A stretch of DNA of 57,051 nt. Origin: an uncultured virus (IMG/VR IMGVR_UViG_3300031566_000004) (lineage: Duplodnaviria; Heunggongvirae; Uroviricota; Caudoviricetes). Shown piece by piece: positions 26,243-52,900 of the stretch (its first letter is position 1; each line of letters opens with the position of its first letter). The translations under genes and the position numbers were made by a program. The DNA lies in the IMG/VR virus record IMGVR_UViG_3300031566_000004; one strand, written 5' to 3'. The notes below the pieces were generated by a model. That model was not told where the DNA came from. It made no database searches and saw only the letters and a program-made list of their open reading frames with translations.

Positions 26243-26247
26243 ACATT

Positions 26248-28650: not shown

Positions 28651-28669
28651 TAACTTACTTATAAAGTGA

Positions 28670-28722
28670 TAAACTTTAATAGTTTACAATCATACTATTA
28701 TAATTTAGTATATTAGTATTAT
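28670..28722 (+). promoter_or_regulatory. Palindrome TAAACT-N5-AGTTTA plus TTTAGTATATTA promoter motif
   Basis: Same two-part layout as 1627-1676. Confidence 0.55.
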
Positions 28723-28734
28723 AAAAGATATCTT

Positions 28735-35100: not shown

Positions 35101-37820
35101 TATTACCAGAAGATCTTGCTAAAATATTTGATGAAGAAAGTGAACAAAGATTTCCTAATGAAATTTTTGATGCTCACACATTAAAGCCTGTTCAAAACCC
35201 AACAGTTGTTGCGGAAGTAATACAATATCTTGCTAAAGGTATACTTAAACCTATTCAAGAAGAGATTACTAAAGAAGAGGGTGAAGGTAAAATAGAGGAC
35301 GCAATTGATCAAGAGAAATATCCTAATATATTTAAATATGCTACTTTTATATTTCCTCAATCAGAAGGGGGTAATGATTTATCTATAGATTTCTTTAATG
35401 AAATAGTTGATGCCTTTACAGCATTAGACAAAGATGAACAAGAAGCTTATGGTGATGTAGATATCTTATTTGAAAAAAATCCTAAAGTTATACAGAATCT
35501 TAAATCTAAATATAAAATACTAGGTGAAACTCAAGCTAAAGAAGATGCTGAAAAAGCTAAAGTTAAAGAAGTAGTTGACGAGGAAGCCGTTAAAGTAGAT
35601 AAGCAACAAGAAACTTTAGATAAGCTATCTGCGTTACAAGAGAAGAATAAAAACTTTAAAACAGTTACAACAACTATTTCTAAACCAACACAACAATCTA
35701 ATGAAACTGAAGCTAAAAAAGTTGAACTAGAAGCACTTATAGATAGAGAAATGATTTTTCTTGAAAGTGAGGAAATATCAAAAACAATAGATGAATTTTC
35801 AAATACTAATTTAGATAGAAACGGAAAAGAAAATCTTTTATTATCAGATATTCAAAATATTGTAGAAGATTGGGGAATAGATGAACAATCTGTTTCTGAA
35901 TATATGAAAATGCAAGGCACTACTCTTATAAAAGCTGTTTGGAGAAATAATAAAGCTGAATTTTTTAAACTATTAGAAGCTTGGAAAAAAGCTACAGAAT
36001 TAAAAGCAGAACTAAAATCAACACAACAAGATGGTGGAAGTAAGTCACAAACATCTATTTATACAGATGGTAAACTTAAATTAGAAAGACAGTCTAATTT
36101 TAAAGATAGAGTAAATGGCACAACAACTGAATCTAATGACAATATGGCTCAAGGAGCTGCTAGAGGTAACTTAGCTGATATAGTTGGTAGAGATATATTT
36201 GACGGTAAAACAAAAGAAGAAGTTAAAGCAAACAGAGAAAATTATCTAGAAACAGCTAATGAGATGAATGCTAAATCTAGTAGATTTAAAGTAAACATAG
36301 AGCAAGAGCAATTTGAGATAATGGTAGATGCTTTCTTTACACTTAAAGATAATCTAGAAAAACAAGGTTATAAATTTGTAGCTAATGATGTATTTACTTA
36401 TATGGAATTTACAGACGCTGAAAAGAAAGCTACAGGTCTTGACGGTGTTGGTGGTACTTTAGATTTAGTAGCTGTTGCTCCAGATGGTACAATAGCTATT
36501 ATAGATTTTAAAACACTTAAAGCAGGGAATCAAACTACAGCAGCTAAATACATATTTAACGAAGGTGAATTTGAACCTAGAGTTAAAGGATGGTCTGACC
36601 AACAAACAATATATGAGGATTTACTAAGATCTTCTGAAGGAATAGAATCAAGTAGTATTAACATCTTTACTTTAGTTTCTAATTATGAAATGGATGGTGA
36701 TACAGTAAATGTTACATCTGCTGAAGGATTTGAACAAGTTACTCCAGAAAGTACTGTTGATGGTGTTCCCGGATTAATTAAACTAAAAAGATCACCAATA
36801 ACATCTTTACTTAAAAAAGCTGTAAAAGGTTATGTAGATAAAGAAACTGTTAAAAAGAAAGTTGAAGATGATAGTATAATTCCAGCTAAAGGTCAAAAAA
36901 TACCAACTGGAATAGACCCTAATATTGCAATAGATCTTGAAGAAAGTCCACTAAACGAGCAAGAAACAGAAGCATTAGCTTCACTTAAAGATACAGGTTT
37001 TGTTATTAAATCTTATACAGATAAAATTAAAGGTATTGGTGTAGCTCAGACTAAAATATTTAAACATGGTAATAAATTATTTAAAATATCCTATGTAGGT
37101 TATAGAGATTCTACAGAAGTATATAATACCAGTATAATTACGGAAGAAACGCCACAATTAAAAGCTTGGTCTAAAGGACAAGGAAAGTCACATGTTTATA
37201 TAGTTCAAGAAATTACAAATGAGATTACAGATGAAATTTTAGATGAAGCAGACATTGTTTCTACAAGTAAATATGTAAAAAATGTAATGAAGGATGTGAT
37301 ACCTAAAATTCCTTCTATACATACAATAAAAGATAATGCTTTAAGAGATAAAGTTTACACAAAAATTGAGAAATTACTCAAGAGTAAAGAAAATAAATTA
37401 GAAAAATTACTGGGAGGTACAGCAAATTTCACTATTTTTATAAATAACTTAGTCGATGAAGTAATTGCTGATTATAAAAATTCTATAAATAAACCAGGAC
37501 CTGTTGGAGAAGTAGCCGAAGGATCTTTTGTAGAAGTAGAAGGTAAACAACAAAAAGTAGTTAAGCAAGATAAAGATAGTACTACAATAAAAGATGCTGA
37601 TGGTGAAACTAAGCAAGTTAAGAAAACAAGCACTGTTACTAAAACAGCTGTTAAAAAAGAAAAATCTATGTTAAGTAAAGATTCTGTTAAAGCAATGATT
37701 GCCACTTTGCAAGTGAATTCTAAAAAATTAGATAAAGATAAAGCTTTGGCAAAAATTAAGCAAGATTCTAAAGATTTTAAATCTGGTTTTATTAACGCCC
37801 TTAAAAATAATTGTAAGTAA
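32199..37820 (+). CDS. Large cargo/ejection protein with hydrophobic helices and a PD-(D/E)xK nuclease domain
   Basis: 1873 aa; Gly/Ala-rich hydrophobic segments, coiled coils, and GTLDLVAVxxDGxxxIIDFKT...QQxIY. Confidence 0.7.
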   Translation: MPDYSKLNLGDPLKINNMDYANINFADDANSTPLDSYNDLRNVSSGVKDPFSQMGAQYFDASSKGFNYERYYNHPKFNKLGFSPYRDNEAVYNANSSWLDEMSRASGQWGTLAKIGAMSNIKSMGRMLGGDFSPDLSEAREYERAANIGSSSKGGIGGFTTNLYLNSGYTVGMIAEIFAEEAIMAIGSAVTFGGAAPAAGVRTGYNAGKLGKAFSNMFDYTKAVKSFDKVKDVSNMSKANNFYKNANKVGDFLNPLSGTTNTLRNWDKMDNLTNLAKTSKTAANFYRDVRELNMVVSESQLEAGMAFNSVKDDLYDEYITQNGKAPGVDDMEKISNAALAAQDMSFYSNLGLIYMTNKVSFAPIFKKFKGGVSTDLFQGQGYKMILNKEGLKDATQQAVKVVKDGTNKLFSKATLKNPKAGLKATALGALKYSKANFSEGIQEYFQESISEGATSYAKDLYSDNLEGGYWNYMADGIKSMANGQGFEVFMSGFLMGAPITLAQKTGIKTFDYADAKIFKKKAAEKKEKKEQIIKNAEKTADILNDWLKNNPQDFFNSNIEALRNQSTSQSKMDEAEMTGDQKAYQDAKSAKDIARALDIIKSPQKFEHFKSIYNELASLSDDELVSAFGVKGQSGESIRNSIYNDLNRVHKIQQTRKKLEKINPFNPNISKLKEPSSEDIAQVIGYNAWEAAIDDVTFLQEDFDNTISRITKLGDELLNNNMFSVFKSVSYGGKTKISPQDVQATFSVEGMAQQLSLLNAEIEALSYAENKTPEEVKLLKNKRQQARSLKRLFETVNVNTEKTKEESENLKEYLKELQKEISEYESLDLTEKYQNKLKELKDQEAYIRTKHFERDGSLRDTYLDLKNYFKTLAEVNGEIFDATNFDEMFVKYKDLYALREDGNNLSKSINVLADPKGFMNHFTALEQSYRDKWANRKDYLKEVLETHYTSEEMNKLANELLDKFGVFLLPEDLAKIFDEESEQRFPNEIFDAHTLKPVQNPTVVAEVIQYLAKGILKPIQEEITKEEGEGKIEDAIDQEKYPNIFKYATFIFPQSEGGNDLSIDFFNEIVDAFTALDKDEQEAYGDVDILFEKNPKVIQNLKSKYKILGETQAKEDAEKAKVKEVVDEEAVKVDKQQETLDKLSALQEKNKNFKTVTTTISKPTQQSNETEAKKVELEALIDREMIFLESEEISKTIDEFSNTNLDRNGKENLLLSDIQNIVEDWGIDEQSVSEYMKMQGTTLIKAVWRNNKAEFFKLLEAWKKATELKAELKSTQQDGGSKSQTSIYTDGKLKLERQSNFKDRVNGTTTESNDNMAQGAARGNLADIVGRDIFDGKTKEEVKANRENYLETANEMNAKSSRFKVNIEQEQFEIMVDAFFTLKDNLEKQGYKFVANDVFTYMEFTDAEKKATGLDGVGGTLDLVAVAPDGTIAIIDFKTLKAGNQTTAAKYIFNEGEFEPRVKGWSDQQTIYEDLLRSSEGIESSSINIFTLVSNYEMDGDTVNVTSAEGFEQVTPESTVDGVPGLIKLKRSPITSLLKKAVKGYVDKETVKKKVEDDSIIPAKGQKIPTGIDPNIAIDLEESPLNEQETEALASLKDTGFVIKSYTDKIKGIGVAQTKIFKHGNKLFKISYVGYRDSTEVYNTSIITEETPQLKAWSKGQGKSHVYIVQEITNEITDEILDEADIVSTSKYVKNVMKDVIPKIPSIHTIKDNALRDKVYTKIEKLLKSKENKLEKLLGGTANFTIFINNLVDEVIADYKNSINKPGPVGEVAEGSFVEVEGKQQKVVKQDKDSTTIKDADGETKQVKKTSTVTKTAVKKEKSMLSKDSVKAMIATLQVNSKKLDKDKALAKIKQDSKDFKSGFINALKNNCK
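35679..35718 (+). repeat. 40-nt intragenic repeat, copy A (SKPTQQSNETEAK)
   Basis: 36/40 nt identical to 40112-40151 in the next gene. Confidence 0.85.
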
Positions 37821-40800
37821 TGATTTGTGCATTAGGAGATGAAGCTTTAGAATACGTATACGCTAGTGTGTATAAAGAATTACAAACTTTAGTTGATAAT
37901 AATCAACTCTTAAACTTAAAGAGTTTATTACAAAATCAGTATAATAGTTTAGCAGAAGAAGTAGGTCATGAACTTGCCTTAGAAGCTGTACATATTATGC
38001 CTATGTATGCTCTTCAAGCAATGGTTGATGATAGTGAGTTTCTATCTTATTTTAAAGATAACTTTAATGAGATTAGTGAAACAGCTACTTTATTTCAAGA
38101 TCCTACTAAAATAGTAGAGTACTTAGAGTCTACATTAACTCCAGTACAAATTGCTGTTAATAGAAGTAAGATAGATGCAGCTGTACCAACTAATAAAAGA
38201 GTTGAAGCAGTTGAACCACCTAAAGAAGTTACTAAAGCTTCTGATAGACCTGAAACACCTAATGTTACTTACTTTTGGGAAGCTTCATATGGCAATGTAA
38301 ATAGTGAAGGATTTTACGCTTATGGTTTATTAAGAAAGCTTAGTTCTGAATTCCCAGGTAATCCTGATTTTACAACATTAACTTATAATGGTCATACAGG
38401 TTTCAGATTAAAGATGGTAACATCAGAAGAACTTGAAAAAAGTAATGATCTTTATGAGCAAGATAAAGACTTTAAAGAAAAGAATCCTGAAGAATTTAAT
38501 AAAGCAGCAAATGTAGTAGTTACAGATAATGAAGGTAATACTTTATATTTTGATGAAAACTACAATATTTCAAAAGAAAAAAAAGAAGGCTACAAGGCTA
38601 TTTATTTTAAAACAAGAAAACCTGTTAAAGATACCGACGGTAACTGGACACATACTTCATTAAAAAAAGAAATAAAAGAAGGTAAAGAATTTGACGTAAT
38701 AGTTGATGGTGTTAGACAAAGAGCATCTACTATACAAACGCCAAAAGAAATAGCGCATTCTAAGAAGATAAATAGTAAAGAAGCATCTAAATATATACAA
38801 GATGAATATAACAAGCTTGTAGAGCTCCAAAATAAGCTTTTAGAGTCCGGTAAAGCTATTTTACTAGACATAGAATATTTAAGTGAAGGATTTCCTATAG
38901 TAAACTTAGGAGAAAAAAGTAAAACACAACTTAAGGATGTTGATTTTTCTGAAACATATCAAGGATATGCTCTTACAGAAGTTAAACGTGGTGTTTACCA
39001 GATTACGTTAACTAATCCTAATAAGCAAGATAATATTACCGTAAGACAAAATAAACTTACACAAGCTCAACAAAATATAATTTCAGAATTACTTTTTAAC
39101 CCAGCTCTTTCTAATCCAAGAAAATTAGGTAAAAACAAAGTACTTAATGCAAAAGAAAGACATGAGATATTAACTACATTAGTTGGTGATCAATTATATT
39201 TTAAATACGACTATAATTCAAAAGAAGTTCTTCCTACAAACATTAGACTAGTCACTAATGTTAAAGGCAAAAATGTTGCTGAAATTAATGTTACACCTGA
39301 ATACTTGAAAGATAGTTTTTTTAATTCTCCTTTAGGTGATGGGGAAGTAGTAGACGGGGTAACTAAAAATCAAAAAAATAGAATTAATATATTAAGTAGT
39401 TTTATAGGGAAAAATATTAGTGCTCCTATTAAAGTAGAAAATAACGAGATAACTATGGAAACAATGAGTTATGATGACTTCATAATTCAAAACGCTTATA
39501 CTACTAATGAAACACTTAATTATAAGGGTAAAAAGGTTATTTTTAGAAAACACCCATATTTTAAATTTACTCCTTCAGATCAAGCTATTCAAGAAGAAAC
39601 TAAAGAAATAAATGAGACTGCGGGTACTATGACCCAGACAACTCCTTATGGTACTACTGCAGGCCCTATTCTAACGACTTCGACAGCACAACAAACTAAT
39701 GAGGTTGAAATAATATATTCTCCAATAGACATGTCAGGCTATGGTAAAAGTTATAAACAAGCTGATATATCAAAAGGAGGAAAAAGCATAGTCTTTAATA
39801 CACACCAAAATACTATTAGAAAAGATAATAATGGAGTAATAGAATTGTCTATAGATGATGTAGACGGTAAAACTTTCTATCCAATATCAGTAGATTTAAG
39901 TAAAACTGCTGAATATGCTGATTATAAAAAGAAATTAGATATACTTAATGCTGAAAGAAAAAGATTAAAAGAAGCTGGAGAAAAAGGTGTTGAAGATATG
40001 CTTAGAGGTATGGGAGCTTCCATGAGTGTTGCGAAAAAACAATTATTAGAACTTATAGCAACGGAATTAAAAAAGAAGAATAGAGTTGCTCCATATAAAG
40101 GGGGAGAGTTATCTAAACCAACACAACAAACTAATGAAGTTAAAGCTAAAACTAAATTTACACCTAACCCTTTTACAGAGACGGAAGTAGACCCTGATGA
40201 ATTAATGAGATCTAAAAAATTAGACTCAGGTGTAACTAAAGAACAAATAGAGAAGGCTCAAAAATGGTATGAATCTTCAGATATTAATAAACTACTAGGT
40301 TACAAACAAGCATTTAATATAGTTAATTCTGACGCATACGCTACATTTAGCTCTGCTGGAATAACATTATTTAATGGAAGTAATTTTACAGATTTATATC
40401 ATGAATCATGGCATGCTTTTTCTCAATTATTTTTAACTGTTGGAGATAAAACTAAATTATACAATGAAGTAAGTAAGTTATCCGGTAGTTTTACTAATCA
40501 TAATGGACAACAAGTTAAATTTAAAGATGCTAGTTATTTAGAAATAGAAGAATTCTTAGCTGAAGATTTTAGATCTTACATGTTATCAGATGGTACTAAA
40601 GTCTTTAAAGGTAGAACTGCAACTAATAATATATTTAAAAGAATTTTAAACTTCTTAAAAAACTTTTTTAAAGGGACTAAAGCAATAGACTATAGCACCA
40701 TTAACACACAAAATTCTGTTAAAGAACTTTATGATAAACTTAGAGTTGGTAATTTAAACGAATATAATGCTAGTGTTAGTAACATGATGTTTGGTAAACT

Positions 40801-43800
40801 CAACAAAGGTAAAATAATAGCACCATCAAGTGCTAATATTAATCTTAGTAAAGATGAAACTAAACAAGTAATGTCAATGTTTGACTCTATGATGTCTGAA
40901 TATCTTGACTTAAAAAATAAGATGAACGACACTAATAAGTTTACTACTCAGTTTTTCAAAAGTAGTGCAATAAGAAATAACGCTTATGCTAATGCTTATA
41001 ATAGTTTATTAGATAAATATAATAACAAAAACTACCCGGAAGATGCTACAGGTAGAACACAAGAAATTTTTGAACAAGTATTAAATAATTTTAAATTAAT
41101 AGCTGATCATCATCTTGCTAATTCTATATTTGGTAATAATATATCATCAAAAGAATCTAAAAAAGAAAAATTAGCTGAAAATATTGATGAAGAAGTTGCC
41201 GATAAAGACCTTGGAGTAGAGTTACTTAGTAAGTCTAATGTAGACCCAAGTAATTATAGAACAGACATAATAGACTATTTAATGTCTACACTACCTTTTG
41301 TAGACTCAGAAGGAAACTTTAGATTAGATAGATTTGGTGTACCTATGCTTGCAGATAGTTTTCAAGTAAGTACTTTATTAACTAACTTACTTACAGATAC
41401 AAGAGGTATTGATGCCATGTATGAAGTTTTAGATTCTTATGCTAAATCTACTAAACCATATAGTAATATAGTTAATATATTGCTAGCTAGATTAGGAAAT
41501 ACTAAAGATATTAATATTAGTACAGCTGCTACATGGTTTGAATTCCATAAGTCTTTTGGTTTAAATTCAACACCTGTTTCAGTCACTTTAAATAGAAAAC
41601 ACAAAAATGATGATGGAATAGTTACACATGATTTAATACATAAACATAATGATGCTATTGTAGATAAAACTGTAAATAATCTTGATAACGCATTTAAAAC
41701 AGCAGATCCTAGTAAACACATGATTATTAAAGATCCTAGATATGGGAATATTTTAGATCTTGAAGCTATTTATGATAAATATAGAAAGTTCAGTCCACAA
41801 CACGGTGAACATAAAGTAGATTTTATAGAGGGCACTAGAATAGTAGGATTTCTTACAGATATAGGTTTTGACTTATCAGATATAGGTTATAATAGTGAAC
41901 TAGCTAAAGAGTTAAGAGAAGCTACTCAAGGAAAAGGGGATTCAAAACTAAATTTAAATTTTTTATTACGGTCTTTAGTTAAGTCTCATGAAAATAATTT
42001 AAAGAAAAAAGAAAAGGCTGAAAAAGAAGGTACTGACTATGAACCTAAAATGTATAGGTCATTAAGTGAAATATTTAGTGATGATAATAAGCATTTAAAA
42101 AGTATAGCAAAAATCATAGCAAAAAACTCACCTACAGTAAGTGTGGCTATGGTGCCTGATGCTAGTAATAATCCTGTTTATACTAATAAAACTTTCTCTA
42201 CACAGACAGTAATGATTAATTTACTAAATAGTGTAGAACATGTTGACCAACTTAATGGTAAGCATCAAACTGTAGATACTATTGAAGAATTACATCATTT
42301 AGGACCAGACTATGCTTGGGCTTCAGCTAGTATGACTAAACGAGCTATGTTTGATACTAGCGGTAAAAGAAGAAAAGATAGTAGCATAGAAAGTAAAGAA
42401 TTATTAGGCGTTTCAAATACTGCTGAGTCTGTCCATGAGAACGGTGAAAAAACTAATAAATTAACACAAGGTGACAAATTAATAGAAAACATGAATTACC
42501 TTCTATTAAAAGGGGCATCTGAACAAATGCGTTATGGTACTAAATCTACTGCTACAGCTGTTGTAATAAGAAATGTTAATGATAGTAATCAAGATAAATA
42601 TTTATATATAGACTTAGAAAACTTTAAAGAAGCTAACTTAAGTATAGCTAATGAGCAATTTACAGCAATGGTTATTCCTTTTATAGATGCTGAAATAGCT
42701 AGAATGATTGAGTTTAATAAAAAAGATAGTCCTTACAGTAATATTAGTAATTCAAGTAATTTTTATGAGAATGGTAAAGACTTTGTTTTATTTGATAAAA
42801 TACTTAGCGATGAGACAAAAGAAACTATAAAAAATTATTATAATATTAGTGATCCATCAACAGAGATTGTAACATTAGAGCAATCTATGAATAGTGGTGT
42901 TTTAGATAATAGCGAATTAGCTGCTATTAGAGATATGATTTATAATGATTTATCATTATTTATGTCTAAGGCTGTAGATCTTGACATGAATGATTTTAAT
43001 AAAATGCCTTATATTTCTGATAATTTACGACAAAAAATAGAGCTAAGAACTGGGGCTAAAGGTCATGTAGCTAAAAATTTAGCAGTTAAAGCATTTTCTT
43101 ATAATTATGTTTTAAGAAATTTAGACATGCTCGGGTTATTATATGGTGATCCTGCTCAGTTTAATATGGCTAAAGAAGATTTTCATAAACGTATTGGAGC
43201 TATAGCTTCAGGAGGTGTACAATTTTCCAATGATGTAAGTACGAATGAGTTTGTAAATACTAGTGTAGGTAGACCTTTAGCAGAATCTAAAGGATTTACT
43301 AAATCTACTTCTTGGGACGGTAAGCTTAGAACATCTGTAATAGCTGATAACAACGTAAGATCTACAGCTTATGACGCCATGTTTAAAACTTTAACTGAAG
43401 ATTTTGGTTATAGCAAAGTTGATACAGAAAGAAGATTAGAAGCTTATTTGAAAATGACTGAGGGAGATGCTCAGGGGTATATGTCATTAGATACATATAG
43501 AACATTATCTATTATTAGCGGTAAGTGGGACTGGAATAAACAAGAAACGTTATTTCAAAAAATAGTTAATAAAGAAGATATAAACACTGACGATGTAGTT
43601 AAATATTTTCCTCCAAGAAAGTATCAATATTATGGGCCATTAGCTAATAACTTAGACCCAGCTTCAAATAGATCTATATCATTGCAAGCATTTCATAAAT
43701 ATAGTTTACTGCCATTAATTCCTGGAGTGTTTGGTGAAAATGCTGACAAACTTCATGATCAAATGATGGAGCAAGGTATAGATTATACTATATTTGAATC

Positions 43801-46800
43801 TGCTTCTAAAATAAACTCAGTTACTTCCAACGGAAAACCTGATGTAATATATAAAGATTTTGATAATTCAAGAGAATTAAAAGAGACTTTACCCTTTACA
43901 GTTAATGAAATATTTTTAGCATATCTAAAAGATCAAACAGACGTAAATGAAAAATACAAAGGTAAAACTACTTTACCTACTCAAATGCGTAAGTTAGTCA
44001 CTATTGGTATGTTTGACGGGGGTGATAGTACCTCTGAAGAAAATAAAGTTCTTGCAGAAAAATATCAAAGTTTACTTGATGCATTAGTTGCTAAAAATAA
44101 AGAAGATTTAATAGAAGAATTAGGTTTAGAGTATACTACAAATGAAGATGGTGTTAAAACATTTTCTAAAAAGGGTTTAGAAAATCTTACTAATGCTATA
44201 CAGACTGAATTATCTGAAAGAGACTTAGGAGACAATGAGCTAGAATTTATACAGGTAGATAAAAATGGAAATTTAAAAGTAGATTTATCTTTTTCACCTT
44301 CTGCTGAGAAAATAGAAACAGCTTTAGTATCTTTAGCTAATAAGCGTATAGTTAAGCCTAAAGTAGCAGGAGAACCTCTTATTCAAGCGTCATCTAGTAT
44401 TTTAACTGACAATGACATGCCTAGAAATGCTACTAAGGCAGAAAAAGAAGAATACGGTACTAACGGTCTTAAATTTTATAGCTATGATCCCAAAACGGGA
44501 ACTAAAGCTATGCAGGTAAAAATTTCAATGCAAGGTAAATTTAAGCACTTACTACTTAGAGCTGATGTTCTTAAGAAAGCAAAAGATGAAAATATATCTA
44601 CACTTAAAGCTTTAAATCTTTTAATTGAAGACAAAGAATGGATCTCTGAAAATAAAGAGATCCTTACTATGGTGGGCGTAAGGATACCAACTCAAGGTCT
44701 TAATTCTATGGATGTAATGGAGATAGCTGAGTTCTTACCAACACATGCAGGTAATATTATTATAGCACCATCAGAAATAGTAGCTAAAACAGGTTCAGAT
44801 TTTGACGTTGACAAAATGTTTATAATGATGCCAAGTTTAATGAACTTAGACGGTAAAACACATAAATATAAATATGATAAAAGTATAAAAGATAGTACAC
44901 AATCTCTTAAAAATAATTTAAGTGAGTTAATAGAAAAGCAAAAAGAATTATACGAAACATTATACAATGAAGTTACTCCTGAAGTAATTGCAGCTAAATC
45001 TGAAATATATAATGAGTTTAAAGAATCAATAAGTGATCTTAACAGTAAAGTTAAATTAGCTAAAGAAGAGCTTGAGTTATTAAAACTTAGAAGTGTTACA
45101 GAAAATGTTAATGACGAAATAGCCTATGTAGAAAATAATATAGAAAAACTTAATGACCATATTACTAATCTACTTAGTGATAGAAATGAATTATTTGAAC
45201 TTGACGCTACTGAAAAGACTCAAAAAATAAAAGAAGATATAGCAAATACTAAAGAAGAAATTAATAAAGTTAAACTTAATCTAGCTAATTCTTCAGCAGC
45301 AGCTATCCAAACAAGTTTAGTAGATGTTTTAACTGATATACTACTTAAACCTGATAATTTTGCAAATTTAATTACCTCTATTGATGGTGATACTGTTAAA
45401 AATAAGGCTAATGAATTAGGTAAATTTATGAGCTATAACTCCTCTCAAAGTTTAATAGACCAAGATCACGCTAAAAAAGGAATACATGCATTTCAGATAT
45501 TGCTCTCCAGTTATAATTTAGATAAGCATCGTAAAAATAATGAAGGAATGGCCACTTTAGGTCAAGCAGCTATTGATTTAACTTTTAAATCTGAGTTTAA
45601 TAGAATAGGGTTCCACCTTAATCCTTATATGATGTTAGATACTAAAGATAAAGATGGTGAAATTATTAAAACGCAAAGTGATATTGCTCTCAATTTATTG
45701 TTACCACATAACGTTGCTAAAAACGGAGGAATAGATTTATCTAGATTAAAAGATACAGAAGGAGAAGATATTTTTTATATACTTAACTTATTAATTAATG
45801 GTTGGGTAGATATAGAAAAGGATGCTTGGATTTTTAATGTACAAGGTAATAAGAAAGTAGAACCTACATTAGTTATGTTAGTTATGGCTGGTGTACCTTT
45901 TGATAAAGCGGCTGATTTTGTTTCTAACCCTTATGTAAAAGAATACGTAGAGTCTCAAAACTATTATGAATCTTTATTTGTTGAAGCGCATGAAGGATCT
46001 AATTTTACTCAAGGTAATCCTAAAATTAAAGCATTAAATGATATACTTAAAAAATACGATAGTGATAACTTTAAAACAGAAAAACTTAAAAATCCAGCAT
46101 ATGACACTGAGTTTTTAAAACAAATACAAGATAGACGTAAAGAGCTAATAGGTGAAAATGCTATTAAAACTTCTTCATTAGTATCTATAAATGTTGAAAG
46201 TTTATCTGAAAAAGATAAAAAAGACGCATTTGGGGCTTTTCTACATTTTATTGAATTACAAAATATAGCAGAAGATTTAACACAACTTAAGTTACATATG
46301 AACTATGATACAACTGTATCTAGAACATTATATGATATACACCAAAAAGAAGCAAACATACCTTCTTTAAGAACAGGAAAAATCTACGCTGAAGAATTTG
46401 TAGATAGTTTATTAGAAGGTTCGCCTATTGGTACTTTTAATATATCTGACTTTCAATCAGATTTATGGTCTCAAGTGTTAATTCTTAGAAATGACAAAAC
46501 TTTAAATGATAAAATAAAGTCTATTACGTCTGATCCTGGGTTTCAAACAACGCTTAGAGAAACTTTTGGTAAAGGTAATCAAGCAAAATATGTAGAAGCT
46601 TACAGAAATAATTTAATTAAATATTTATTACAAAATAGTTTATTAGAATCTAGATCTAAAGATTTTTATAAAAGTTTAGCTACTAAAACAAGTTTAACTA
46701 AAAAAGAAATATCTAATTTAAAATATGGTGCTGCTGTGCTTGACAAAGTTTTATATATTTCTAAGGATAAAATTAGAGAACAATATAAAAGAAAAGACTT

Positions 46801-49800
46801 TACAAATGCATCTGAATATTTTAAACTTGGGTTAGCTCCTGTACCTTTATTTACTTTTACTCATGAAGGTAAGAATAGCGAGCAAGAATATGAGAATTTT
46901 GTAATAGAAAGAGAATATTTAAGACATTCTATGCCTATAAATGAAGTTATGGGTACACCTATGTTTGAAGAATATAAAAATTCTCCTGAAGAGGCAGATA
47001 ATAATTTTTTACATTTACTACCAGGAGATAATATTGAAAATAAAATTAACTTATTAACATATGAGAGAATAATTAGAGATATGGCGTTAAGTAATATCTT
47101 TAATATTAATAGTTTATTTTCATCTAAAACAAATACTGTTGCTGATCAGTTTTTAAGAATAACAAAAATGTATCCTGAGTTAGCAGAAGAATATGCTGTA
47201 TTTACACAATTTAAAGAGTTACCTACTTTAAATAGTGATGTAAAAAATATAGGACCTATAACTTCTAAACCAAAAGGTGAATTAGTTGAAAGAGTTAGTG
47301 AAAATATTAAAGAACTTCAAAACCATAAAGATATTTTTGTTAGAGATTTTTTCACAAAATTACCTATGTATGCTTTTTTACAATCAGGTCATAATACTAA
47401 AAGTATGAATTCTATTTTGAGATACATGCCTCAAGGAGATTTTGTACAAATGTTAAGTAATCAAATTAATGATGTTAAAGTTACTACTAAGATATTAAAT
47501 AGTTACACAGCTAAATTTAATAAAGTTAATCGTGTTGATAACAAGATAAGATATAAAATACAAGATTACACTGTTCCTAATGAAAAAGATGATCATATTT
47601 CACAAATTAACGTAATAGAAATATCAGCATATAAAGGTGTTCCAGTGAAATACTCTAACAATATTAGAAGTAAACAAAATACTAGAATTGCTGCTAAATA
47701 TAGTGAAGGAGTTATATTATTAGATAAAGAACTTTTACTAGAGGGTTTTAGTAAAAAAGCTTGGACTAGTCCTAGAAACTTATTTGAGACTATTCATGGT
47801 GAAAAAATAAATTCTAAAGCAGATGCTCTAGCCCCAGATACTTTTACAACTTATGAAGAATGGCAAAATTTTGTAATAGAGCATGAATATCAACATACTT
47901 TATACACAAGAAAAGATTTTGATAATGAATTTCCAGGATCTACGTTAGGCCATTATGAATCTGTAATTAATCAAAGAGCTCTTGAAGCTTTAAGTACAGC
48001 AGAAGTTGAAAGTATACCTACAACACTAGTAGAAGATAACAATAACTATACTGTAGTACCTTTAGCTGTAGAAAATGCATTTCAGATAGTAAGACCAGAT
48101 TTTACTGAAGAGGTTGAGAATTCTGTACCTAAAGCAGAACTATTTGAATCTACTCCTGAATTAGCTAATGAAGTATATGAAGCTGCTGGGTTTAAATCTA
48201 ATCTTCCTAGTGTTTTAGATTATAAAATAGGAAAAATATATAATACACAAGGTAAAGAAATATTTGCAGGTGTAGTTGATGGACAAGTTTATATCAACAA
48301 AGAATTATTAGATAAATACTCTAACAAAGAAGTTTTAGATAACCAACTTCCTATTCTTAATACTGTTCTTAAAAACTTAAATGTTTATGATAGGCTAGTC
48401 AATGGTTCCAAAGAACAACTTGTTAGATTTTTAGTTGAACATGAAAAAGCTCACTTAGATTTTGAGAGAGAAGGAAGAAAATTTAAAAACGAAGAAGTTG
48501 AGGAAGTCTATGCTAATGGTAAAGCTTTAATAACCATTGGAATATTAAAAAGTAAAGATTTTGATATAAGTGGATCCAATGAAGCTGTTATTAGATTAAG
48601 TAAATATTTTCCTACCAAAGAGGAATATATTGATGATATGGTAGAACTTGTAGCAAAGGCAATGGATAATGCTACAGTAGATTTATCTACAATAACTGGT
48701 TATGAAGTAGATGTATTTAAGGGTTCTCTTTGGGGTAAAAAATTACAAACTTCTTCAATGGATAATTTCTTTTTTTTACAAGGAAAAGATGGCTATCCTA
48801 AAAATAAAGGAGAATTAAAAGAAGCTATATCTAAAGATATAGCAAGAAATATACCTCGCTCTATTAAAGAAAAATATTGGAAAGAAATATTAAAGTCTTT
48901 ACCTGATGATGAAAAAGCATTATTAAGTAATTGGGCGTACTATAACAATATAAAGTTTTATACTTCACAATATGGAAAACCTTATTTTGATTTTAATAAA
49001 GAAAAATATCCAGAATTAAATAAAGAAGATAAAGAAAAATATACAAACTGGGATAGTTTTATTTCTGGTATTATTGGATCATTTACAGGTGCTGGTAGTG
49101 ACCTTTGGTTTGCAAATAATTTATTAGCAGATGAAGAAGGTAGCATTATTGACTGGTATAAAAATCTTACACCAGAAAAACTTGATGAAAATATAAAAAA
49201 TTTATCAAGAGCAATGGCTTTTAAATCTATGGTTGTATCTTCTTTTGAAAGAGGAAGCTCTATATCAGCTTTAGATCAAAATGCTAGAAAAGTTGAAAGT
49301 ATTAAGGAAGCTTATTATGAAATTAAACAAAGAACAGAAGTATCACCTCCTCAACTTACAAGTACAAGTTTAAGTCAAGAAATAACCCCACAACAAAAAC
49401 AAGAAGCTCAAGAAAAGTTTCAAGAGTATGTTAATGCTACAGGAAGACAAGATATAGAAGGATTTAAAGATTTTGTCAATAAACCAAAACAACAAGCTAC
49501 TGAGGTTGATAAAGTAACAGACGAACAAATTATTAAAAACAACCAAAGTACTACATTTGTAACAGAAGAAGCTACTAGTTTTAATAATACTTACCCGATG
49601 CATATTAAAAATATGGGAGAATCTTTAGGTGAAGAAAATTTTGATTATAACAAAACATTAATTGATAATATCGTAAGTGACTTAAAAGAATTAACAGAAA
49701 AAGGTAATCCTGTGTCATTTTTTGAAAATTATGGAGTATCTTTGAAAAATAGTGCTCCTAAAACATATAAATACCTTAATGAGCAACTTGCAGAAAACTT

Positions 49801-49945
49801 TAGATTATCTAATGACCCCTCTAATGAAACTAAAGAGGTCATGCCTAATATTCTACCAAGAGAAATATCTGATGAAGTTATTCAAAAAGGTATACAGAAT
49901 GAAATACAGGATGCTATGGATAGTTTAAATAATTGTAAAAAATAA
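37820..49945 (+). CDS. Virion-packaged DNA-dependent RNA polymerase (crAss/phi14:2 gp66-like) with accessory zincin domains
   Basis: 4041 aa; catalytic loop GSDFDVDK (44792-44815), RIPTQG (44681) and DAQGY; HExxH motifs at about 40400, 47882 and 48440. Confidence 0.9.
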   Translation: MICALGDEALEYVYASVYKELQTLVDNNQLLNLKSLLQNQYNSLAEEVGHELALEAVHIMPMYALQAMVDDSEFLSYFKDNFNEISETATLFQDPTKIVEYLESTLTPVQIAVNRSKIDAAVPTNKRVEAVEPPKEVTKASDRPETPNVTYFWEASYGNVNSEGFYAYGLLRKLSSEFPGNPDFTTLTYNGHTGFRLKMVTSEELEKSNDLYEQDKDFKEKNPEEFNKAANVVVTDNEGNTLYFDENYNISKEKKEGYKAIYFKTRKPVKDTDGNWTHTSLKKEIKEGKEFDVIVDGVRQRASTIQTPKEIAHSKKINSKEASKYIQDEYNKLVELQNKLLESGKAILLDIEYLSEGFPIVNLGEKSKTQLKDVDFSETYQGYALTEVKRGVYQITLTNPNKQDNITVRQNKLTQAQQNIISELLFNPALSNPRKLGKNKVLNAKERHEILTTLVGDQLYFKYDYNSKEVLPTNIRLVTNVKGKNVAEINVTPEYLKDSFFNSPLGDGEVVDGVTKNQKNRINILSSFIGKNISAPIKVENNEITMETMSYDDFIIQNAYTTNETLNYKGKKVIFRKHPYFKFTPSDQAIQEETKEINETAGTMTQTTPYGTTAGPILTTSTAQQTNEVEIIYSPIDMSGYGKSYKQADISKGGKSIVFNTHQNTIRKDNNGVIELSIDDVDGKTFYPISVDLSKTAEYADYKKKLDILNAERKRLKEAGEKGVEDMLRGMGASMSVAKKQLLELIATELKKKNRVAPYKGGELSKPTQQTNEVKAKTKFTPNPFTETEVDPDELMRSKKLDSGVTKEQIEKAQKWYESSDINKLLGYKQAFNIVNSDAYATFSSAGITLFNGSNFTDLYHESWHAFSQLFLTVGDKTKLYNEVSKLSGSFTNHNGQQVKFKDASYLEIEEFLAEDFRSYMLSDGTKVFKGRTATNNIFKRILNFLKNFFKGTKAIDYSTINTQNSVKELYDKLRVGNLNEYNASVSNMMFGKLNKGKIIAPSSANINLSKDETKQVMSMFDSMMSEYLDLKNKMNDTNKFTTQFFKSSAIRNNAYANAYNSLLDKYNNKNYPEDATGRTQEIFEQVLNNFKLIADHHLANSIFGNNISSKESKKEKLAENIDEEVADKDLGVELLSKSNVDPSNYRTDIIDYLMSTLPFVDSEGNFRLDRFGVPMLADSFQVSTLLTNLLTDTRGIDAMYEVLDSYAKSTKPYSNIVNILLARLGNTKDINISTAATWFEFHKSFGLNSTPVSVTLNRKHKNDDGIVTHDLIHKHNDAIVDKTVNNLDNAFKTADPSKHMIIKDPRYGNILDLEAIYDKYRKFSPQHGEHKVDFIEGTRIVGFLTDIGFDLSDIGYNSELAKELREATQGKGDSKLNLNFLLRSLVKSHENNLKKKEKAEKEGTDYEPKMYRSLSEIFSDDNKHLKSIAKIIAKNSPTVSVAMVPDASNNPVYTNKTFSTQTVMINLLNSVEHVDQLNGKHQTVDTIEELHHLGPDYAWASASMTKRAMFDTSGKRRKDSSIESKELLGVSNTAESVHENGEKTNKLTQGDKLIENMNYLLLKGASEQMRYGTKSTATAVVIRNVNDSNQDKYLYIDLENFKEANLSIANEQFTAMVIPFIDAEIARMIEFNKKDSPYSNISNSSNFYENGKDFVLFDKILSDETKETIKNYYNISDPSTEIVTLEQSMNSGVLDNSELAAIRDMIYNDLSLFMSKAVDLDMNDFNKMPYISDNLRQKIELRTGAKGHVAKNLAVKAFSYNYVLRNLDMLGLLYGDPAQFNMAKEDFHKRIGAIASGGVQFSNDVSTNEFVNTSVGRPLAESKGFTKSTSWDGKLRTSVIADNNVRSTAYDAMFKTLTEDFGYSKVDTERRLEAYLKMTEGDAQGYMSLDTYRTLSIISGKWDWNKQETLFQKIVNKEDINTDDVVKYFPPRKYQYYGPLANNLDPASNRSISLQAFHKYSLLPLIPGVFGENADKLHDQMMEQGIDYTIFESASKINSVTSNGKPDVIYKDFDNSRELKETLPFTVNEIFLAYLKDQTDVNEKYKGKTTLPTQMRKLVTIGMFDGGDSTSEENKVLAEKYQSLLDALVAKNKEDLIEELGLEYTTNEDGVKTFSKKGLENLTNAIQTELSERDLGDNELEFIQVDKNGNLKVDLSFSPSAEKIETALVSLANKRIVKPKVAGEPLIQASSSILTDNDMPRNATKAEKEEYGTNGLKFYSYDPKTGTKAMQVKISMQGKFKHLLLRADVLKKAKDENISTLKALNLLIEDKEWISENKEILTMVGVRIPTQGLNSMDVMEIAEFLPTHAGNIIIAPSEIVAKTGSDFDVDKMFIMMPSLMNLDGKTHKYKYDKSIKDSTQSLKNNLSELIEKQKELYETLYNEVTPEVIAAKSEIYNEFKESISDLNSKVKLAKEELELLKLRSVTENVNDEIAYVENNIEKLNDHITNLLSDRNELFELDATEKTQKIKEDIANTKEEINKVKLNLANSSAAAIQTSLVDVLTDILLKPDNFANLITSIDGDTVKNKANELGKFMSYNSSQSLIDQDHAKKGIHAFQILLSSYNLDKHRKNNEGMATLGQAAIDLTFKSEFNRIGFHLNPYMMLDTKDKDGEIIKTQSDIALNLLLPHNVAKNGGIDLSRLKDTEGEDIFYILNLLINGWVDIEKDAWIFNVQGNKKVEPTLVMLVMAGVPFDKAADFVSNPYVKEYVESQNYYESLFVEAHEGSNFTQGNPKIKALNDILKKYDSDNFKTEKLKNPAYDTEFLKQIQDRRKELIGENAIKTSSLVSINVESLSEKDKKDAFGAFLHFIELQNIAEDLTQLKLHMNYDTTVSRTLYDIHQKEANIPSLRTGKIYAEEFVDSLLEGSPIGTFNISDFQSDLWSQVLILRNDKTLNDKIKSITSDPGFQTTLRETFGKGNQAKYVEAYRNNLIKYLLQNSLLESRSKDFYKSLATKTSLTKKEISNLKYGAAVLDKVLYISKDKIREQYKRKDFTNASEYFKLGLAPVPLFTFTHEGKNSEQEYENFVIEREYLRHSMPINEVMGTPMFEEYKNSPEEADNNFLHLLPGDNIENKINLLTYERIIRDMALSNIFNINSLFSSKTNTVADQFLRITKMYPELAEEYAVFTQFKELPTLNSDVKNIGPITSKPKGELVERVSENIKELQNHKDIFVRDFFTKLPMYAFLQSGHNTKSMNSILRYMPQGDFVQMLSNQINDVKVTTKILNSYTAKFNKVNRVDNKIRYKIQDYTVPNEKDDHISQINVIEISAYKGVPVKYSNNIRSKQNTRIAAKYSEGVILLDKELLLEGFSKKAWTSPRNLFETIHGEKINSKADALAPDTFTTYEEWQNFVIEHEYQHTLYTRKDFDNEFPGSTLGHYESVINQRALEALSTAEVESIPTTLVEDNNNYTVVPLAVENAFQIVRPDFTEEVENSVPKAELFESTPELANEVYEAAGFKSNLPSVLDYKIGKIYNTQGKEIFAGVVDGQVYINKELLDKYSNKEVLDNQLPILNTVLKNLNVYDRLVNGSKEQLVRFLVEHEKAHLDFEREGRKFKNEEVEEVYANGKALITIGILKSKDFDISGSNEAVIRLSKYFPTKEEYIDDMVELVAKAMDNATVDLSTITGYEVDVFKGSLWGKKLQTSSMDNFFFLQGKDGYPKNKGELKEAISKDIARNIPRSIKEKYWKEILKSLPDDEKALLSNWAYYNNIKFYTSQYGKPYFDFNKEKYPELNKEDKEKYTNWDSFISGIIGSFTGAGSDLWFANNLLADEEGSIIDWYKNLTPEKLDENIKNLSRAMAFKSMVVSSFERGSSISALDQNARKVESIKEAYYEIKQRTEVSPPQLTSTSLSQEITPQQKQEAQEKFQEYVNATGRQDIEGFKDFVNKPKQQATEVDKVTDEQIIKNNQSTTFVTEEATSFNNTYPMHIKNMGESLGEENFDYNKTLIDNIVSDLKELTEKGNPVSFFENYGVSLKNSAPKTYKYLNEQLAENFRLSNDPSNETKEVMPNILPREISDEVIQKGIQNEIQDAMDSLNNCKK
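40112..40151 (+). repeat. 40-nt intragenic repeat, copy B (SKPTQQTNEVKAK)
   Basis: Matches 35679-35718; degenerate copies at 36012, 39680 and 49478. Confidence 0.85.
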
Positions 49946-52900
49946 TGAGTTGTACTTTAGTTAGAGATAATCAGGGTAATTTAACAGGTGTTAATGCTAA
50001 AAACGGGGAACCTAGTTTATTATTTGAAAAATTTAAAAGTTTAGGGGTATCTAATGATGAAGCTTTTGCATTTTATGCACAAGTTCATACTAATTCTTTT
50101 AAGTCATGGTACGGGGACTGGGATAATCAACCAGGGTTAGCATCTAAGTATCTAGATGTTAATGGTGAGCCTATTTTATTTTTTCATGGTACAAACGGTA
50201 CTTTTGATAAATTCGATCCTTCTAAAAAAAGATACAATGCTCATGACATAGAAAACGGTATGTTTTTTTCACAAGAATATAGTCATGCTAAAAAATATGG
50301 GGTTAATGTTATTCCTGTATTTTTAAAAGCTCAGACTATTGATAGAACAGAACCTACTCCTGAGATGTTGGCTAAACCTTCACAGTTAAGTGCGTTACGT
50401 AAATATGAGAGTAATATTATAAATACAACTAAGGCTGATTCAGTTGAGCTCCATACTAATGATAAGGAAGGTATCGGTATAAAGCAGAATGTTATATTTA
50501 ATCCTAATAACATATTAATAGTTAGTAAATCTTCAGAAACTACGTCAAAAAAAAGCCCACTAAAGCAACAAGTTGAATCTTCTGACCCTTTAGTGGATGC
50601 TGATAGAATAATTAGTGAAATAGAATCTATTAGTACAATGGAGTCTATATCTAATTCTTTTGAAGTAGAATCTCAAAATTCTTTAGAAATAGTTAGAGCT
50701 GTTGCTGATAGATTATCAGAAAAACTAGGGGTACCTTATTCTGTAGTTAGTGCGACGCAAGCTTATCAAATTACTAAAAATGCTAAAAATCCATACAATG
50801 GTCAACCAGCTTTTTATTATAATGGTGTTGTTCACTTTGTAGAAGGACAGATGAATATGTCTACAGTATTTCACGAATTCTCTCATCCTTTTGTAACAGC
50901 TCTTAGAAATGAAAACAAACCTCTTTATGATAAACTAATTGCAGAGTTAGCTTCTACTGAAAAAGGGGCTCGTTTATTAAAAGAATCTGCTGAAGAATAT
51001 AATAGTGATATTAATGACCCAGCTGTAACAGATGAAGCTTTAGTCAAATCTTTAGAAGAATCTTTATTAGATAATAATACTCCTGAATTTACTTCTTTAA
51101 TTAAGAAGATAATTTATAATATTAGACAAATGCTTAGAAGAGTATTTGGTAAAAATGTTACAGTTTCTAAATTAGGTTTAAATACATCAGTAAAAGATTT
51201 AGCTAAAATATTAAAATCTAAATATGTTAGAATAGAGCCTATAGAAATAACTAAAGCTGACTATGTTGCATATAAGCGTATGTCCATAGATGAATCTAAT
51301 AAATTAGCTGAAGACTTAGCTAAAAACTTAGATAATTCTGATGTTTTACAAATGCTTGATGCTTTTTATACACATACTTCTTCTCAATTAAGAGAGTTAA
51401 AGAAGAATAAAGACATAAAAGGTCTTAATGAGCTTTTAGCTACTGTATACGGTGATAATCCATTACAGAAAATGGCTAGTGTGTTAGGTAAATACGAAAC
51501 TATTACTCATAATAATTATGATGAAATACGTAGTAAAGTTGAGTCAACAGAAGCGTTAACTCATGAAAGAACTAAAGCTATAGTAAGTAGTTTAGAGGAA
51601 ACTAAAACTATGTTAGAAGCTATGGTTCCTAGACTCTTTGATTTAACAAAACAAGCTACAATTGAGTTATCCGACTTACAATTAGCAATGGCTACTTATC
51701 AAACTATTAAGTCTTATGAAACTTTTGTAACAAGCGTCAACGAAATACTCACAGAACAAGGCTTCCCTAATAATTCAGGTATAATGGATTTATTAGGTGT
51801 TATACAAGGTAAATTAAAATCAGTAGACTCTCACATAAAAAAAATACAACAAAAAGGTGTTAGCTCTGTTATAATAGATCAATCTAAAAGCTTAAGAGAT
51901 GAATTAATCAATGATAGAAAAGAACGTATAAAAGAACTTAAAAATGAAAGCGCTAATTCAAAAGTAAATAGAGATAGTGAGATTAAAAAATTAGAGAATG
52001 AAATAAAAACTATTGAAAATCACGCTAAAAAGATTGCTGATATTTTAGCTAATAAGTCTAAAGACTCAAACATGCTTTCTTGGTTAACATCTCCTATGAA
52101 TTCACAGGACCCATTAATATCAGGTTACGCAAAATTAATTAAACTATCTAAAAGTGATGCAGCTCTTAAAACGCAAAGAGAGCAAAATCAAATTTTAGAA
52201 GAACTTGCTCCATTATTAGAAAAAGTAAGAACTAATAGACATTTTGATAGAGTAGATCAAATAGGTCAAGCTATAACTTATGAAGCTACAAAATTATTTA
52301 GAAACGAAGCTGGTGAGTTAGAAGAAAGAAAAGTATATGCTTTTTTAGATAAATATAAAGATCATAAAACAGGTTTAGAAAAGCTTAAGTATGAAGCTTT
52401 CCAAGCTAGAACTAAATGGCAAGAAACTAATGAAGAAAGTGCTTATAGAGAATATTTAGATGCAAGAGCTGCTTTAGAGCAACATAAATTAAACTTTTTC
52501 CAACAACCATATGTTAAAGAGTTTTATGCACCTAAGAAAGTTTTATTAGAAACTACTGAAACTATTGATGGTGTAATATATAATATTGGTAAAGATGCTT
52601 TTATTAAAAGATCTGAAATACTTGAGAAAATTCAAGAGTATACTGACAGAAGTGAGAAAGAAGAAGATCCTAGTGAAAAACAAAAAGAACTAGATCTTAT
52701 TAATGTTTTATGGAAAGAATATAGAAGATTATATTCTACAGTAGACGAGTATGGTAATAAAAAAACAGGTGTAGCACTAGCAGAAGCTAAGGCTCTTATT
52801 AAATATAGAAATTCTAATAATGTTTTTTATAAGTATACTGAAAAAGAAGGAGCTTTTCAAACAGCTCTTCAGGAATATGAAAAGTTTTTAGAGACTTCTT

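Follow-up and report, generated by a model that had tools for sequence, protein, structure and literature searches.

Three adjacent genes of a crAss-like phage encode giant proteins whose only cysteines (Cys) lie at the ends that face one another. They are found on a 57,051-nucleotide stretch of DNA from an uncultured virus (IMG/VR record IMGVR_UViG_3300031566_000004; Caudoviricetes), the whole of which is called the window here, and encode a first protein (P1), a predicted virion RNA polymerase (RNAP) and a third protein (P3). The Cys pattern is real, far above chance and order-wide in the Crassvirales. We consider it probable that P1, RNAP and P3 stay one thread through unfolding and ejection because each tail docks non-covalently on the next head and an inter-protein disulfide latches the docked ends in the virion. 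The features concerned are as follows.

32199..37820, + strand: link 1 (P1), 1,873 residues, 210 kDa; sole Cys at 1872, the penultimate residue (end LKNNCK)
37638..37817, + strand: P1 tail module, last 60 residues; predicted docking helix ending at Cys1872 (codon 37812-37814)
37818..37822, + strand: junction 1, TAATG stop/start overlap; ordinary translational coupling, not conserved
37820..49945, + strand: link 2, predicted virion RNAP, 4,041 residues, 459 kDa; Cys3 (start MIC) and Cys4039 (end LNNCKK) only
37820..38164, + strand: RNAP head module, predicted all-helical domain of about 100 residues beginning at Cys3 (codon 37826-37828)
44798..44812, + strand: DFDVD catalytic motif of the two-barrel RNAP (RNAP residues 2327-2331)
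49871..49942, + strand: RNAP tail module (ISD...LNNC helix), ending at Cys4039 (codon 49934-49936)
49943..49947, + strand: junction 2, TAATG stop/start overlap, not conserved
49945..56055, + strand: link 3 (P3), 2,036 residues, 232 kDa; sole Cys at residue 3 (start MSC; codon 49951-49953)
Within P3: ART-PolyVal domain at residues 71-164, HExxH at residue 310

Four cysteines in 7,950 residues

P1, RNAP and P3 together comprise 7,950 residues with exactly four Cys (P1 1872, RNAP 3 and 4039, P3 3) and no internal Cys. The original prediction, made by reading the sequence, had called the inward termini essentially the only Cys of about 7,950 residues; the computed count makes them exactly the only ones, and no overlooked internal Cys was found in the three window proteins. 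The first 17 genes of the window hold 141 Cys in 6,840 residues (2.1%), with a Cys within 10 residues of an end at 3 of 34 ends. Given four Cys, the probability of one in each of the four inward 10-residue ends is about 6e-11; this figure is post hoc, and the real test of the pattern is provided by the relatives.

Identity of the three proteins

Judged by its sequence, the middle reading frame is a crAss-type virion RNAP. It matches PDB 6VR4 at E 8e-18 and phage phi14:2 gp66 at E 2e-23, and the three Asp of the catalytic motif are invariant in 38 aligned homologues. P3 is the orthologue of phi14:2 gp65 and crAss001 gp49; a profile of its C-terminal part matches gp65 at E 8.5e-22 and gp49 at E 3.5e-29. 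P1 appears to be the positional equivalent of phi14:2 gp67 and crAss001 gp47, on the basis of gene position, Cys pattern and transitive matches (P0103/P0109); tblastn and profile searches gave no direct match between P1 and the named phages. In crAss001 it is gp50 that matches the RNAP core (L002:16938-24176) and gp49 that matches P3/gp65; the available text of PMC10172136 names the crystallised phi14:2 protein as a homologue of gp49.

The modules phi14:2 gp67-gp66-gp65 (gp66 is PDB 6VR4) and crAss001 gp47/gp50/gp49 share with the window a homologous RNAP and P3 and the same Cys pattern, and their proteins have been detected in virions by mass spectrometry (MS). The window RNAP is longer (4,041 residues versus 2,180 in phi14:2 and 2,412 in crAss001), with a core that is about 24-27% identical. 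By analogy with these orthologues, whose packaging is documented by MS, P1, RNAP and P3 would be packaged and are probably injected into the host. The nearest relatives of the window module are uncultured contigs with 33-44% core identity. One virus record (G001) is 100% identical to the window over 36500-51000; it is perhaps the same assembly and hence no independent check.

Conservation in related loci and named phages

A first RNAP search listed 120 homologues with 24-41% core identity, the window's own protein included. A Cys is present in the last 10 residues of 115 of these and in the first 10 residues of 97. In a larger set of 316 homologues of at least 2,900 residues (19 shorter ones were excluded), a C-terminal Cys within 10 residues of the end occurs in 313 and an N-terminal one in 288. 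Exactly the two terminal Cys and no more are found in 221 of the 316, and internal Cys number 153 per 1.16 million residues.

Whole loci were compared for the 80 top-ranking of 235 viral loci and the 80 top-ranking of 296 from metagenomes, these 160 falling into 86 clusters by shared 6-mers. The related loci came from an alignment-based search; single-sequence searches gave none. Counts use genetic code table 11; table 15 ran through real stops in L021, L039, L070, L084, L113, L115, L117 and L125. Across the 86 clusters the Cys pair is complete at 79 of the 80 first junctions that are visible and at 81 of the 82 second ones, no outer end has a Cys (0/11 P1 starts, 0/59 P3 ends), and the relatives' three proteins contain 29 internal Cys in 568,122 residues. 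When 64 P1 orthologue tails are aligned the Cys is the sole invariant column, and the same is true of Cys3 in 64 aligned RNAP heads. The exact position varies from 1 to 8 residues from the C-terminus and from 3 to 7 from the N-terminus. Eight gene breaks that lack Cys, including the two junction misses, were chosen by eye; seven are a one-base frame change or a single stop that a relative reads through (L010, L035, L088, L094, L117, L123, L136), and at the L130 break there is only an overlapping open frame.

The pattern extends to 19 named phages that cover all four Crassvirales families: eight Steigviridae (phi14:2, crAss001, cr85_1, cr128_1, DAC15, cr106_1, cr116_1, cr108_1), five Suoliviridae, four Intestiviridae (jaberico, LMMB, crAss002, cr3_1), one of the Crevaviridae (cr127_1) and Flavobacterium phage Fpv3. 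Both Cys lie within 10 residues of the ends at 26 of 26 junctions, and none of the 36 uncut outer ends has one. Retention of the terminal Cys in orthologues, on which the original prediction hinged, is thus borne out in loci and named phages alike. In phi14:2, gp67, gp66 and gp65 have four Cys in total, sited as in the window (gp67 C1797, gp66 C3 and C2179, gp65 C3). The junction Cys of crAss001 are gp47 C2339, gp50 C5 and C2404, and gp49 C5. P1 lacks an N-terminal Cys in the window, in 11 of 11 clusters with a whole P1 and in the named phages.

Several records of named phages deserve separate mention. The annotated start of crAss002 gp33 (L175:9645-9750) lies 32 codons 5' of an in-frame MSC start that obeys the rule; the annotated start is probably mis-called, and gp33 was counted from the in-frame Met33. 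In Fpv3 the first small cargo-type protein (L176:746-2542) carries one Cys, at residue 5, which the three-link rule does not cover. The RNAP gene is broken at the GSD-x-D catalytic motif in cr108_1 (L170:16800-17100), by a short intron-like insert, and in cr116_1 (L179:13837-14678), by an insert with its own open reading frame (ORF); given the intron-like insert, the cr108_1 RNAP was rejected as a genuine split. Giant proteins with 19-39 Cys that retain the junction Cys are found in cr130_1 (L173) and cr272_1 (L180) and as P0102 and P0104, and Cys avoidance may be relaxed in certain hosts.

Gene fusion and fission

As encoded in these genomes, the Cys pair is present where a peptide bond is absent and absent where the bond is present. 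P1 and RNAP are placed in one ORF, by gene order, in seven named phages, with no N-terminal Cys; RNAP and P3 share one ORF in five, with no C-terminal Cys. Homology to P1 is found at the N-terminus of 13 of 23 long RNAPs that lack the N-terminal Cys versus 0 of 167 that have it, and each of the 13 P1-like starts matches at least one free-standing P1. A P1 profile of 12 sequences was too weak to call fusions (1 and 2 matches); single-sequence seeds were better. P3 homology is found at the C-terminus of seven of eight RNAP ORFs without the C-terminal Cys (E 1e-19 or better) versus 0 of 16 with it, the eighth being exon 1 of an intron-split gene. Four shorter proteins without a C-terminal Cys (2,421-2,898 residues, probably truncated) gave no P3 match, and a search for proteins longer than P3, limited to 3,564-5,000 residues, gave none at E 0.001. 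P0108 (6,118 residues) has P1, RNAP and P3 parts in one protein and no terminal Cys.

Genes have also been split or added. In L027 the N-terminal 602 residues of RNAP are a separate gene, and the extra junction has its own Cys pair. Six loci in two clusters (L026, L032, L033, L035, L040, L045) possess an extra link of 242-261 residues with Cys at both ends, which sits between RNAP and a short P3 (e.g. L032:14931-15689). In 18 other loci, which form six clusters and have just two Cys, the C-terminal half of this link is instead the end of RNAP itself. It is predicted as two modules around a 38-residue disordered acidic stretch (pTM 0.33, from only 12 sequences). Head scores of 40-66 against the nearest P3 head family hint weakly that the link of about 250 residues may be an adaptor between two coupler types.

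The original prediction had the links released by reduction in the cytoplasm. Since whole families encode the links as one polypeptide, such release cannot be an obligatory step unless the fused forms are cleaved; the available part of the gp66 bioRxiv preprint regards fused forms as polyproteins that are probably cleaved.

A protein-level signal

Both window junctions read TGT(AAA/AAG)nTAATGnnnTGT, and the Cys codons might be a by-product of a DNA or RNA signal at the stop-start overlap, serving translational coupling or a frameshift. This reading is refuted on several counts and has practically no probability left. A -1 overlap of the TAATG type occurs at 12 of 80 first and 8 of 82 second junctions of the 86 clusters, and gaps range from -11 to +154. 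In four Intestiviridae 130-260 nucleotides separate P1 from the RNAP start. In six Steigviridae P1 is on the opposite strand beyond P3, yet both its C-terminal Cys and the N-terminal Cys of RNAP are kept. TGC is used for 43 of 321 junction Cys (13%), much as in other window genes (16/141, 11%). The terminal Cys is, on these comparisons of sequence, a signal at the level of the protein and TAATG is incidental; the overlap, which the original prediction had built into the mechanism, can be dropped from it, being present at 20 of 162 junctions only. Promoter and terminator counts around P1 were at chance (54 vs 48.8).

Proposed docking of tails on heads

At junction 1 the 16 residues preceding the P1 Cys have a net charge that varies inversely with that of the 22 residues following the RNAP Cys (Spearman -0.57, 75 loci), and independent contrasts on the RNAP tree give r -0.63 (72 contrasts). 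Random pairs of internal segments never came as low (0/300), with none below -0.28. The signal fades outside the segments adjacent to the Cys, and non-cognate tail/head pairs have charge correlations near zero or positive.

RNAP has a Cys at both ends, and crAss001 gp57 forms a disulfide homodimer. The two-Cys protein could therefore close on itself, or like ends could staple copies together, giving no ordered chain. We regard this as very improbable. The RNAP tail and head do not vary inversely in charge (contrast r +0.05 to +0.09), the single Cys of P1 and that of P3 are always at the inward end, and fusion drops the N-terminal Cys while keeping the C-terminal one, or the reverse. In addition, the short extra link is predicted as two modules separated by its disordered stretch.

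The heads found at junction 2 belong to several unrelated families, and every family is paired with a tail of characteristic type and length. Spacing between the I(T/S)D motif and the Cys tracks head type, being 12 in 20 of 23 of the CP type and 16-19 in 12 of 12 of a second type.

The RNAP head domain was modelled by AlphaFold2 with mean pLDDT 90.2 and pTM 0.81; no clear relative emerged from fold searches with it, the best Foldseek E being 0.59 and the best Z 6.7 (rmsd 3.8, 93 residues). Co-folding of the P1 tail with the RNAP head scored 0.60 versus 0.01 for the best of three controls, with at least 92% contact agreement among runs and partner pLDDT of at least 67. Among solved complexes 116 of 157 attained the mark applied to such co-folds, as did 2 of 215 mismatches; only 18 of the 157 complexes, together with both mismatches, did so at 0.60 or less. 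Co-folding of the terminal peptides therefore favours the pairing weakly at junction 1 and falls short of placing the two Cys together. Taken with the strong charge co-variation, it suggests that the C-terminal helix of P1 may dock on the next link.

Chemistry of the pair

Across the 321 junction Cys, not one is joined by another Cys in the flanking 15 residues, and only 22 have a His nearby. The flanks vary freely: 12 different residues occur at position 2 and 17 just ahead of the tail Cys, and the tail Cys is the very last residue in 52 of 160 tails. The NNC of both window tails is not conserved in relatives. With no second Cys, few His and free flanks, a zinc clasp, an intein, a ligase or lipidation is disfavoured and a disulfide is the simplest use of the pair.

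The original prediction was of an ordered chain joined by disulfides or shared metal. The ordered head-to-tail Cys link is upheld by conservation, by fusion and fission and by co-variation, and metal is the less likely means. A metal bridge would use the same docking, the two Cys binding Zn, and water, Asp/Glu or another chain's two Cys completing the ligand set. It would function in the reducing cytoplasm during assembly, and several packaged copies (about six are suggested for crAss001) could bring two junctions together to give four Cys. We still find it improbable. An inter-protein zinc hook or clasp has CxxC or a Cys and His ligand pair on each partner, a pattern that the 321 junction Cys do not fit (0 with a second Cys nearby, 22 with a His); the Cys are close to the termini with free neighbours; a covalent bond withstands pulling better than a metal bridge does; and the one solved analogue, in cyanopodophage A4, is a disulfide.

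A disulfide cannot form in the reducing cytoplasm during assembly, so docking must precede it. For the same reason the disulfide cannot set packaging stoichiometry, as had originally been proposed; non-covalent docking would have to do so.

The Cys could instead stay reduced in the particle and be joined upon infection by the periplasmic disulfide machinery of the host, riveting the ejected tunnel and the polymerase anchor. Such joining would explain both the avoidance of all other Cys and the equal service of fusions. We give it little credence, as the RNAP ends would act on the cytoplasmic side and cross the periplasm briefly and unfolded, with docking lost; moreover, the A4 bond is already present in the mature particle and crAss001 virions hold other disulfides.

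Any covalent link would fit the equivalence of fusion and fission, and the NNC at both window tails resembles an intein end. It is nonetheless hardly credible that the Cys serve lipidation, act as a signal for processing or join the proteins into a polyprotein by thioester or native-ligation-type chemistry. A split intein has a Hint domain with Cys1 and a terminal His-Asn followed by Cys, Ser or Thr, and Pfam/PHROG scans of the window gave no intein-like or ligase domain. There is no motif beyond the Cys itself, the N-terminal Cys stands at 3-7 and not at 2, and NNC is not conserved. A thioredoxin match was not found in the partial record G001 (61% complete).

Discussion

A tail-to-head disulfide between ejection proteins is already known from cyanopodophage A4 (Anabaena phage A-4L). 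According to the available text of PMC12002296, the C-terminal helix of A4 gp27 enters a cleft of gp26 and a Cys1715-Cys5 disulfide is present in the mature virion; the authors propose a chain reaction on ejection and describe the disulfide as stabilising the packed assembly. A4 gp27 has 1,717 residues with its only Cys third from the C-terminus, the only Cys of gp26 is residue 5, and the genes are adjacent. A4 therefore resembles the window in having adjacent ejection genes in the same order, with a lone Cys at the C-terminal end of one and the N-terminal end of the next. It differs in having a single junction between two proteins, in one T7-like phage, and no RNA polymerase; in crassviruses the junctions number two or three, the rule holds across the order, and gene fusion can take the place of the Cys pair. 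The phage and fold searches did not show A4 among their matches, and none of them was aimed at gp27/gp26 homology.

No report of terminal-Cys pairing in crassviruses was found in open-access papers or bioRxiv; Extended Data Tables 2 and 3 of PMC10172136 (disulfides; MS of reduced and non-reduced virions) lay outside that search and may bear on the claim. The available part of the gp66 bioRxiv preprint has no mention of Cys or disulfides, and that of PMC10172136 discusses disulfides for gp57 and the tail only. In the same text of PMC10172136, crAss001 virions, although grown on an anaerobe, form inter-subunit disulfides, including the gp57 homodimer; constrictions of the tail narrower than 50 Å force partial unfolding of the cargo; and about 6 copies of each protein are suggested per particle. 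How several megadaltons of protein pass through a channel of less than 50 Å, and in what order, is described as an open question in the available parts of PMC10172136 and PMC13434306, the latter also naming as open the relation of the three crAss proteins to the N-terminal domain, core and C-terminal domain of the N4 polymerase.

From the observed sequence pattern, its conservation, the fusion and fission rule and the co-variation we infer a bond, its timing, a docking geometry and a role in pulling. Docking would take place in the infected cell, the C-terminal helix of one link settling non-covalently on the small N-terminal head domain of the next, as the co-variation supports. This docking would set the order and a 1:1:1 packaging ratio, and would bring the two Cys together. 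In the released particle the pair would oxidise to an inter-protein disulfide, as suggested by the A4 structure and the tail disulfides of crAss001. Partial unfolding in the tail channel would then break the docking; the disulfide would substitute for a peptide bond and link would pull link. RNAP would thereby stay tied to its neighbours, much as domains are held together in the N4 polymerase, a single chain free of Cys. The links may finally be freed by cytoplasmic reduction, an optional step which the fused forms suggest is not required. Internal Cys would be avoided because the chain crosses the oxidising periplasm, an explanation published for N4-like phages.

The comparison with N4 is instructive. 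The accessible text of PMC11445570 notes that Cys is nearly absent from gp50/gp71 of N4/DEV (Schitoviridae) and ascribes this to passage through the periplasm. Like the window RNAP, the N4/DEV RNAP is a giant ejected polymerase with flanking N- and C-terminal regions and few Cys. Unlike it, it is one polypeptide with zero Cys, a T7-type polymerase fold and no separate links. The Cys pattern orders the three RNAP-associated proteins even in rearranged genomes and maps them onto the single-chain N4 polymerase.

A number of observations count against a disulfide-latched thread. The 86 clusters share kinship and are not independent samples. At junction 1 the charge sign test gives only 43 of 64, and the co-fold is weak and lacks a Cys-Cys distance. 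Junction 2 shows only weak charge co-variation (r -0.23 to -0.32 by contrasts, a Spearman value short of significance, 30/60 in the sign test), and the co-segregation of tail and head types there can stem from linkage, as tail and head adjoin on the DNA. Ten of the 23 long RNAPs without an N-terminal Cys show no P1 homology; they include partial or mis-started records and two Suoliviridae giants. The P1-RNAP fusion in Suoliviridae, cr108_1 and Fpv3 is called from gene order only, P1 seeds used with filters giving no match to those giants. Some gut relatives have many internal Cys (cr272_1, 39/6,386 residues; cr130_1, 26/5,801 residues). As far as the available parts of PMC10172136 and of the gp66 bioRxiv preprint describe them, the P1, RNAP and P3 orthologues are not resolved in the crAss001 maps, the gp66 termini are missing from its crystal structure, and purified gp66 was assayed alone in DTT. 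Catalysis therefore needs no link.

A bolder version, which we hold to be slightly less likely than not, is that of a "disulfide-spliced polyprotein". Interchangeable couplers, each a tail helix and a head domain with one Cys apiece, would give a single ordered thread of 5,000-9,000 residues, pulled link by link on load-bearing disulfides, across the order. If this were true, fusion and coupler would be freely exchangeable in evolution and cargo would be pluggable, as with the extra link of 250 residues. The bond would bear the injection load, and not merely stabilise the packed state, in an order that includes the commonest gut phages. The thread of the window, if joined by disulfides, would have about 8,000 residues. 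Known fused forms would be recast as the covalent equivalent of linked proteins and not as precursors in need of cleavage, and couplers, if modular, would offer a natural means of attaching cargo to a phage injection chain. The Cys pattern also supplies an annotation rule, for true starts and for distinguishing true splits from frameshift errors. The linkage is testable at four named residues each in phi14:2 and crAss001, both cultured phages.

Other features of the window

The window is a portion of a crAss-like phage genome, in the order portal, crAss capsid, tail ring genes, a large tail gene and six Cys-poor genes. Pfam/PHROG scans match the portal gene to phrog_6547 (E 2.2e-35) and the capsid and tail-ring genes 5' of the RNAP module to PF23898 (E 1.7e-32), PF25702 (E 1.6e-19) and PF24228 (E 2.5e-14). 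Surrounded by structural genes, at 6454-6870, is a small gene resembling ferritin/Dps (phrog_858, DUF5856).

P1 residues ~1320-1480 (36099-36749) form a weak PD-(D/E)XK nuclease-like insert (PDDEXK_1, E 3e-4, 21.2 bits, below the cut-off of 22). HExxH motifs occur three times in RNAP (residues 861, 3355 and 3541; 40400-40415, 47882-47900 and 48440-48455) and once in P3 (residue 310; 50872-50887). The nuclease-like stretch and the four HExxH motifs can be viewed as plug-in domains of the chain; in their place relatives bear what we take to be helicase, NADAR and 2OG-Fe(II) oxygenase-type Pfam domains. The NGxxS..F...WxGDW module with ART-PolyVal that opens P3 (49945-50544) also occurs within Cys-poor giants from unrelated phages (Pseudoalteromonas Y7, Shewanella Y11, Bacteroides BF1-TP2). 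Those giant proteins have no terminal Cys where their ends are seen, and the rule does not extend to these three non-crAss phages.

Upstream of P1 lie further Cys-poor genes.

21647..32193, + strand: three Cys-poor proteins, probably ejected, with one close internal Cys pair each and no terminal Cys; outside the chain

These genes (21647-26242, 26248-28650 and 28735-32193) encode exactly two close Cys each (1267/1272, 222/225 and 127/133), and comparable single pairs are found in phi14:2 gp69 (369/378), crAss001 gp45 (390/398) and A4 gp28 (1036/1039). The close pairs of these first-ejected proteins are probably an internal disulfide or a metal site. Residues 1230-1400 of the 1,531-residue protein (25334-25846) look by eye like a Cys/His cell-wall peptidase, presumably of the NlpC/P60 or CHAP type; Pfam gave no match for this region. 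A motif of the form (Y/M/F)(Q/A)xGG or (Y/F)GG is present in ten copies in the 1,531-residue protein and in three in the 800-residue protein (21647-28650), and these repeats are possibly maturation cleavage or packaging signals.

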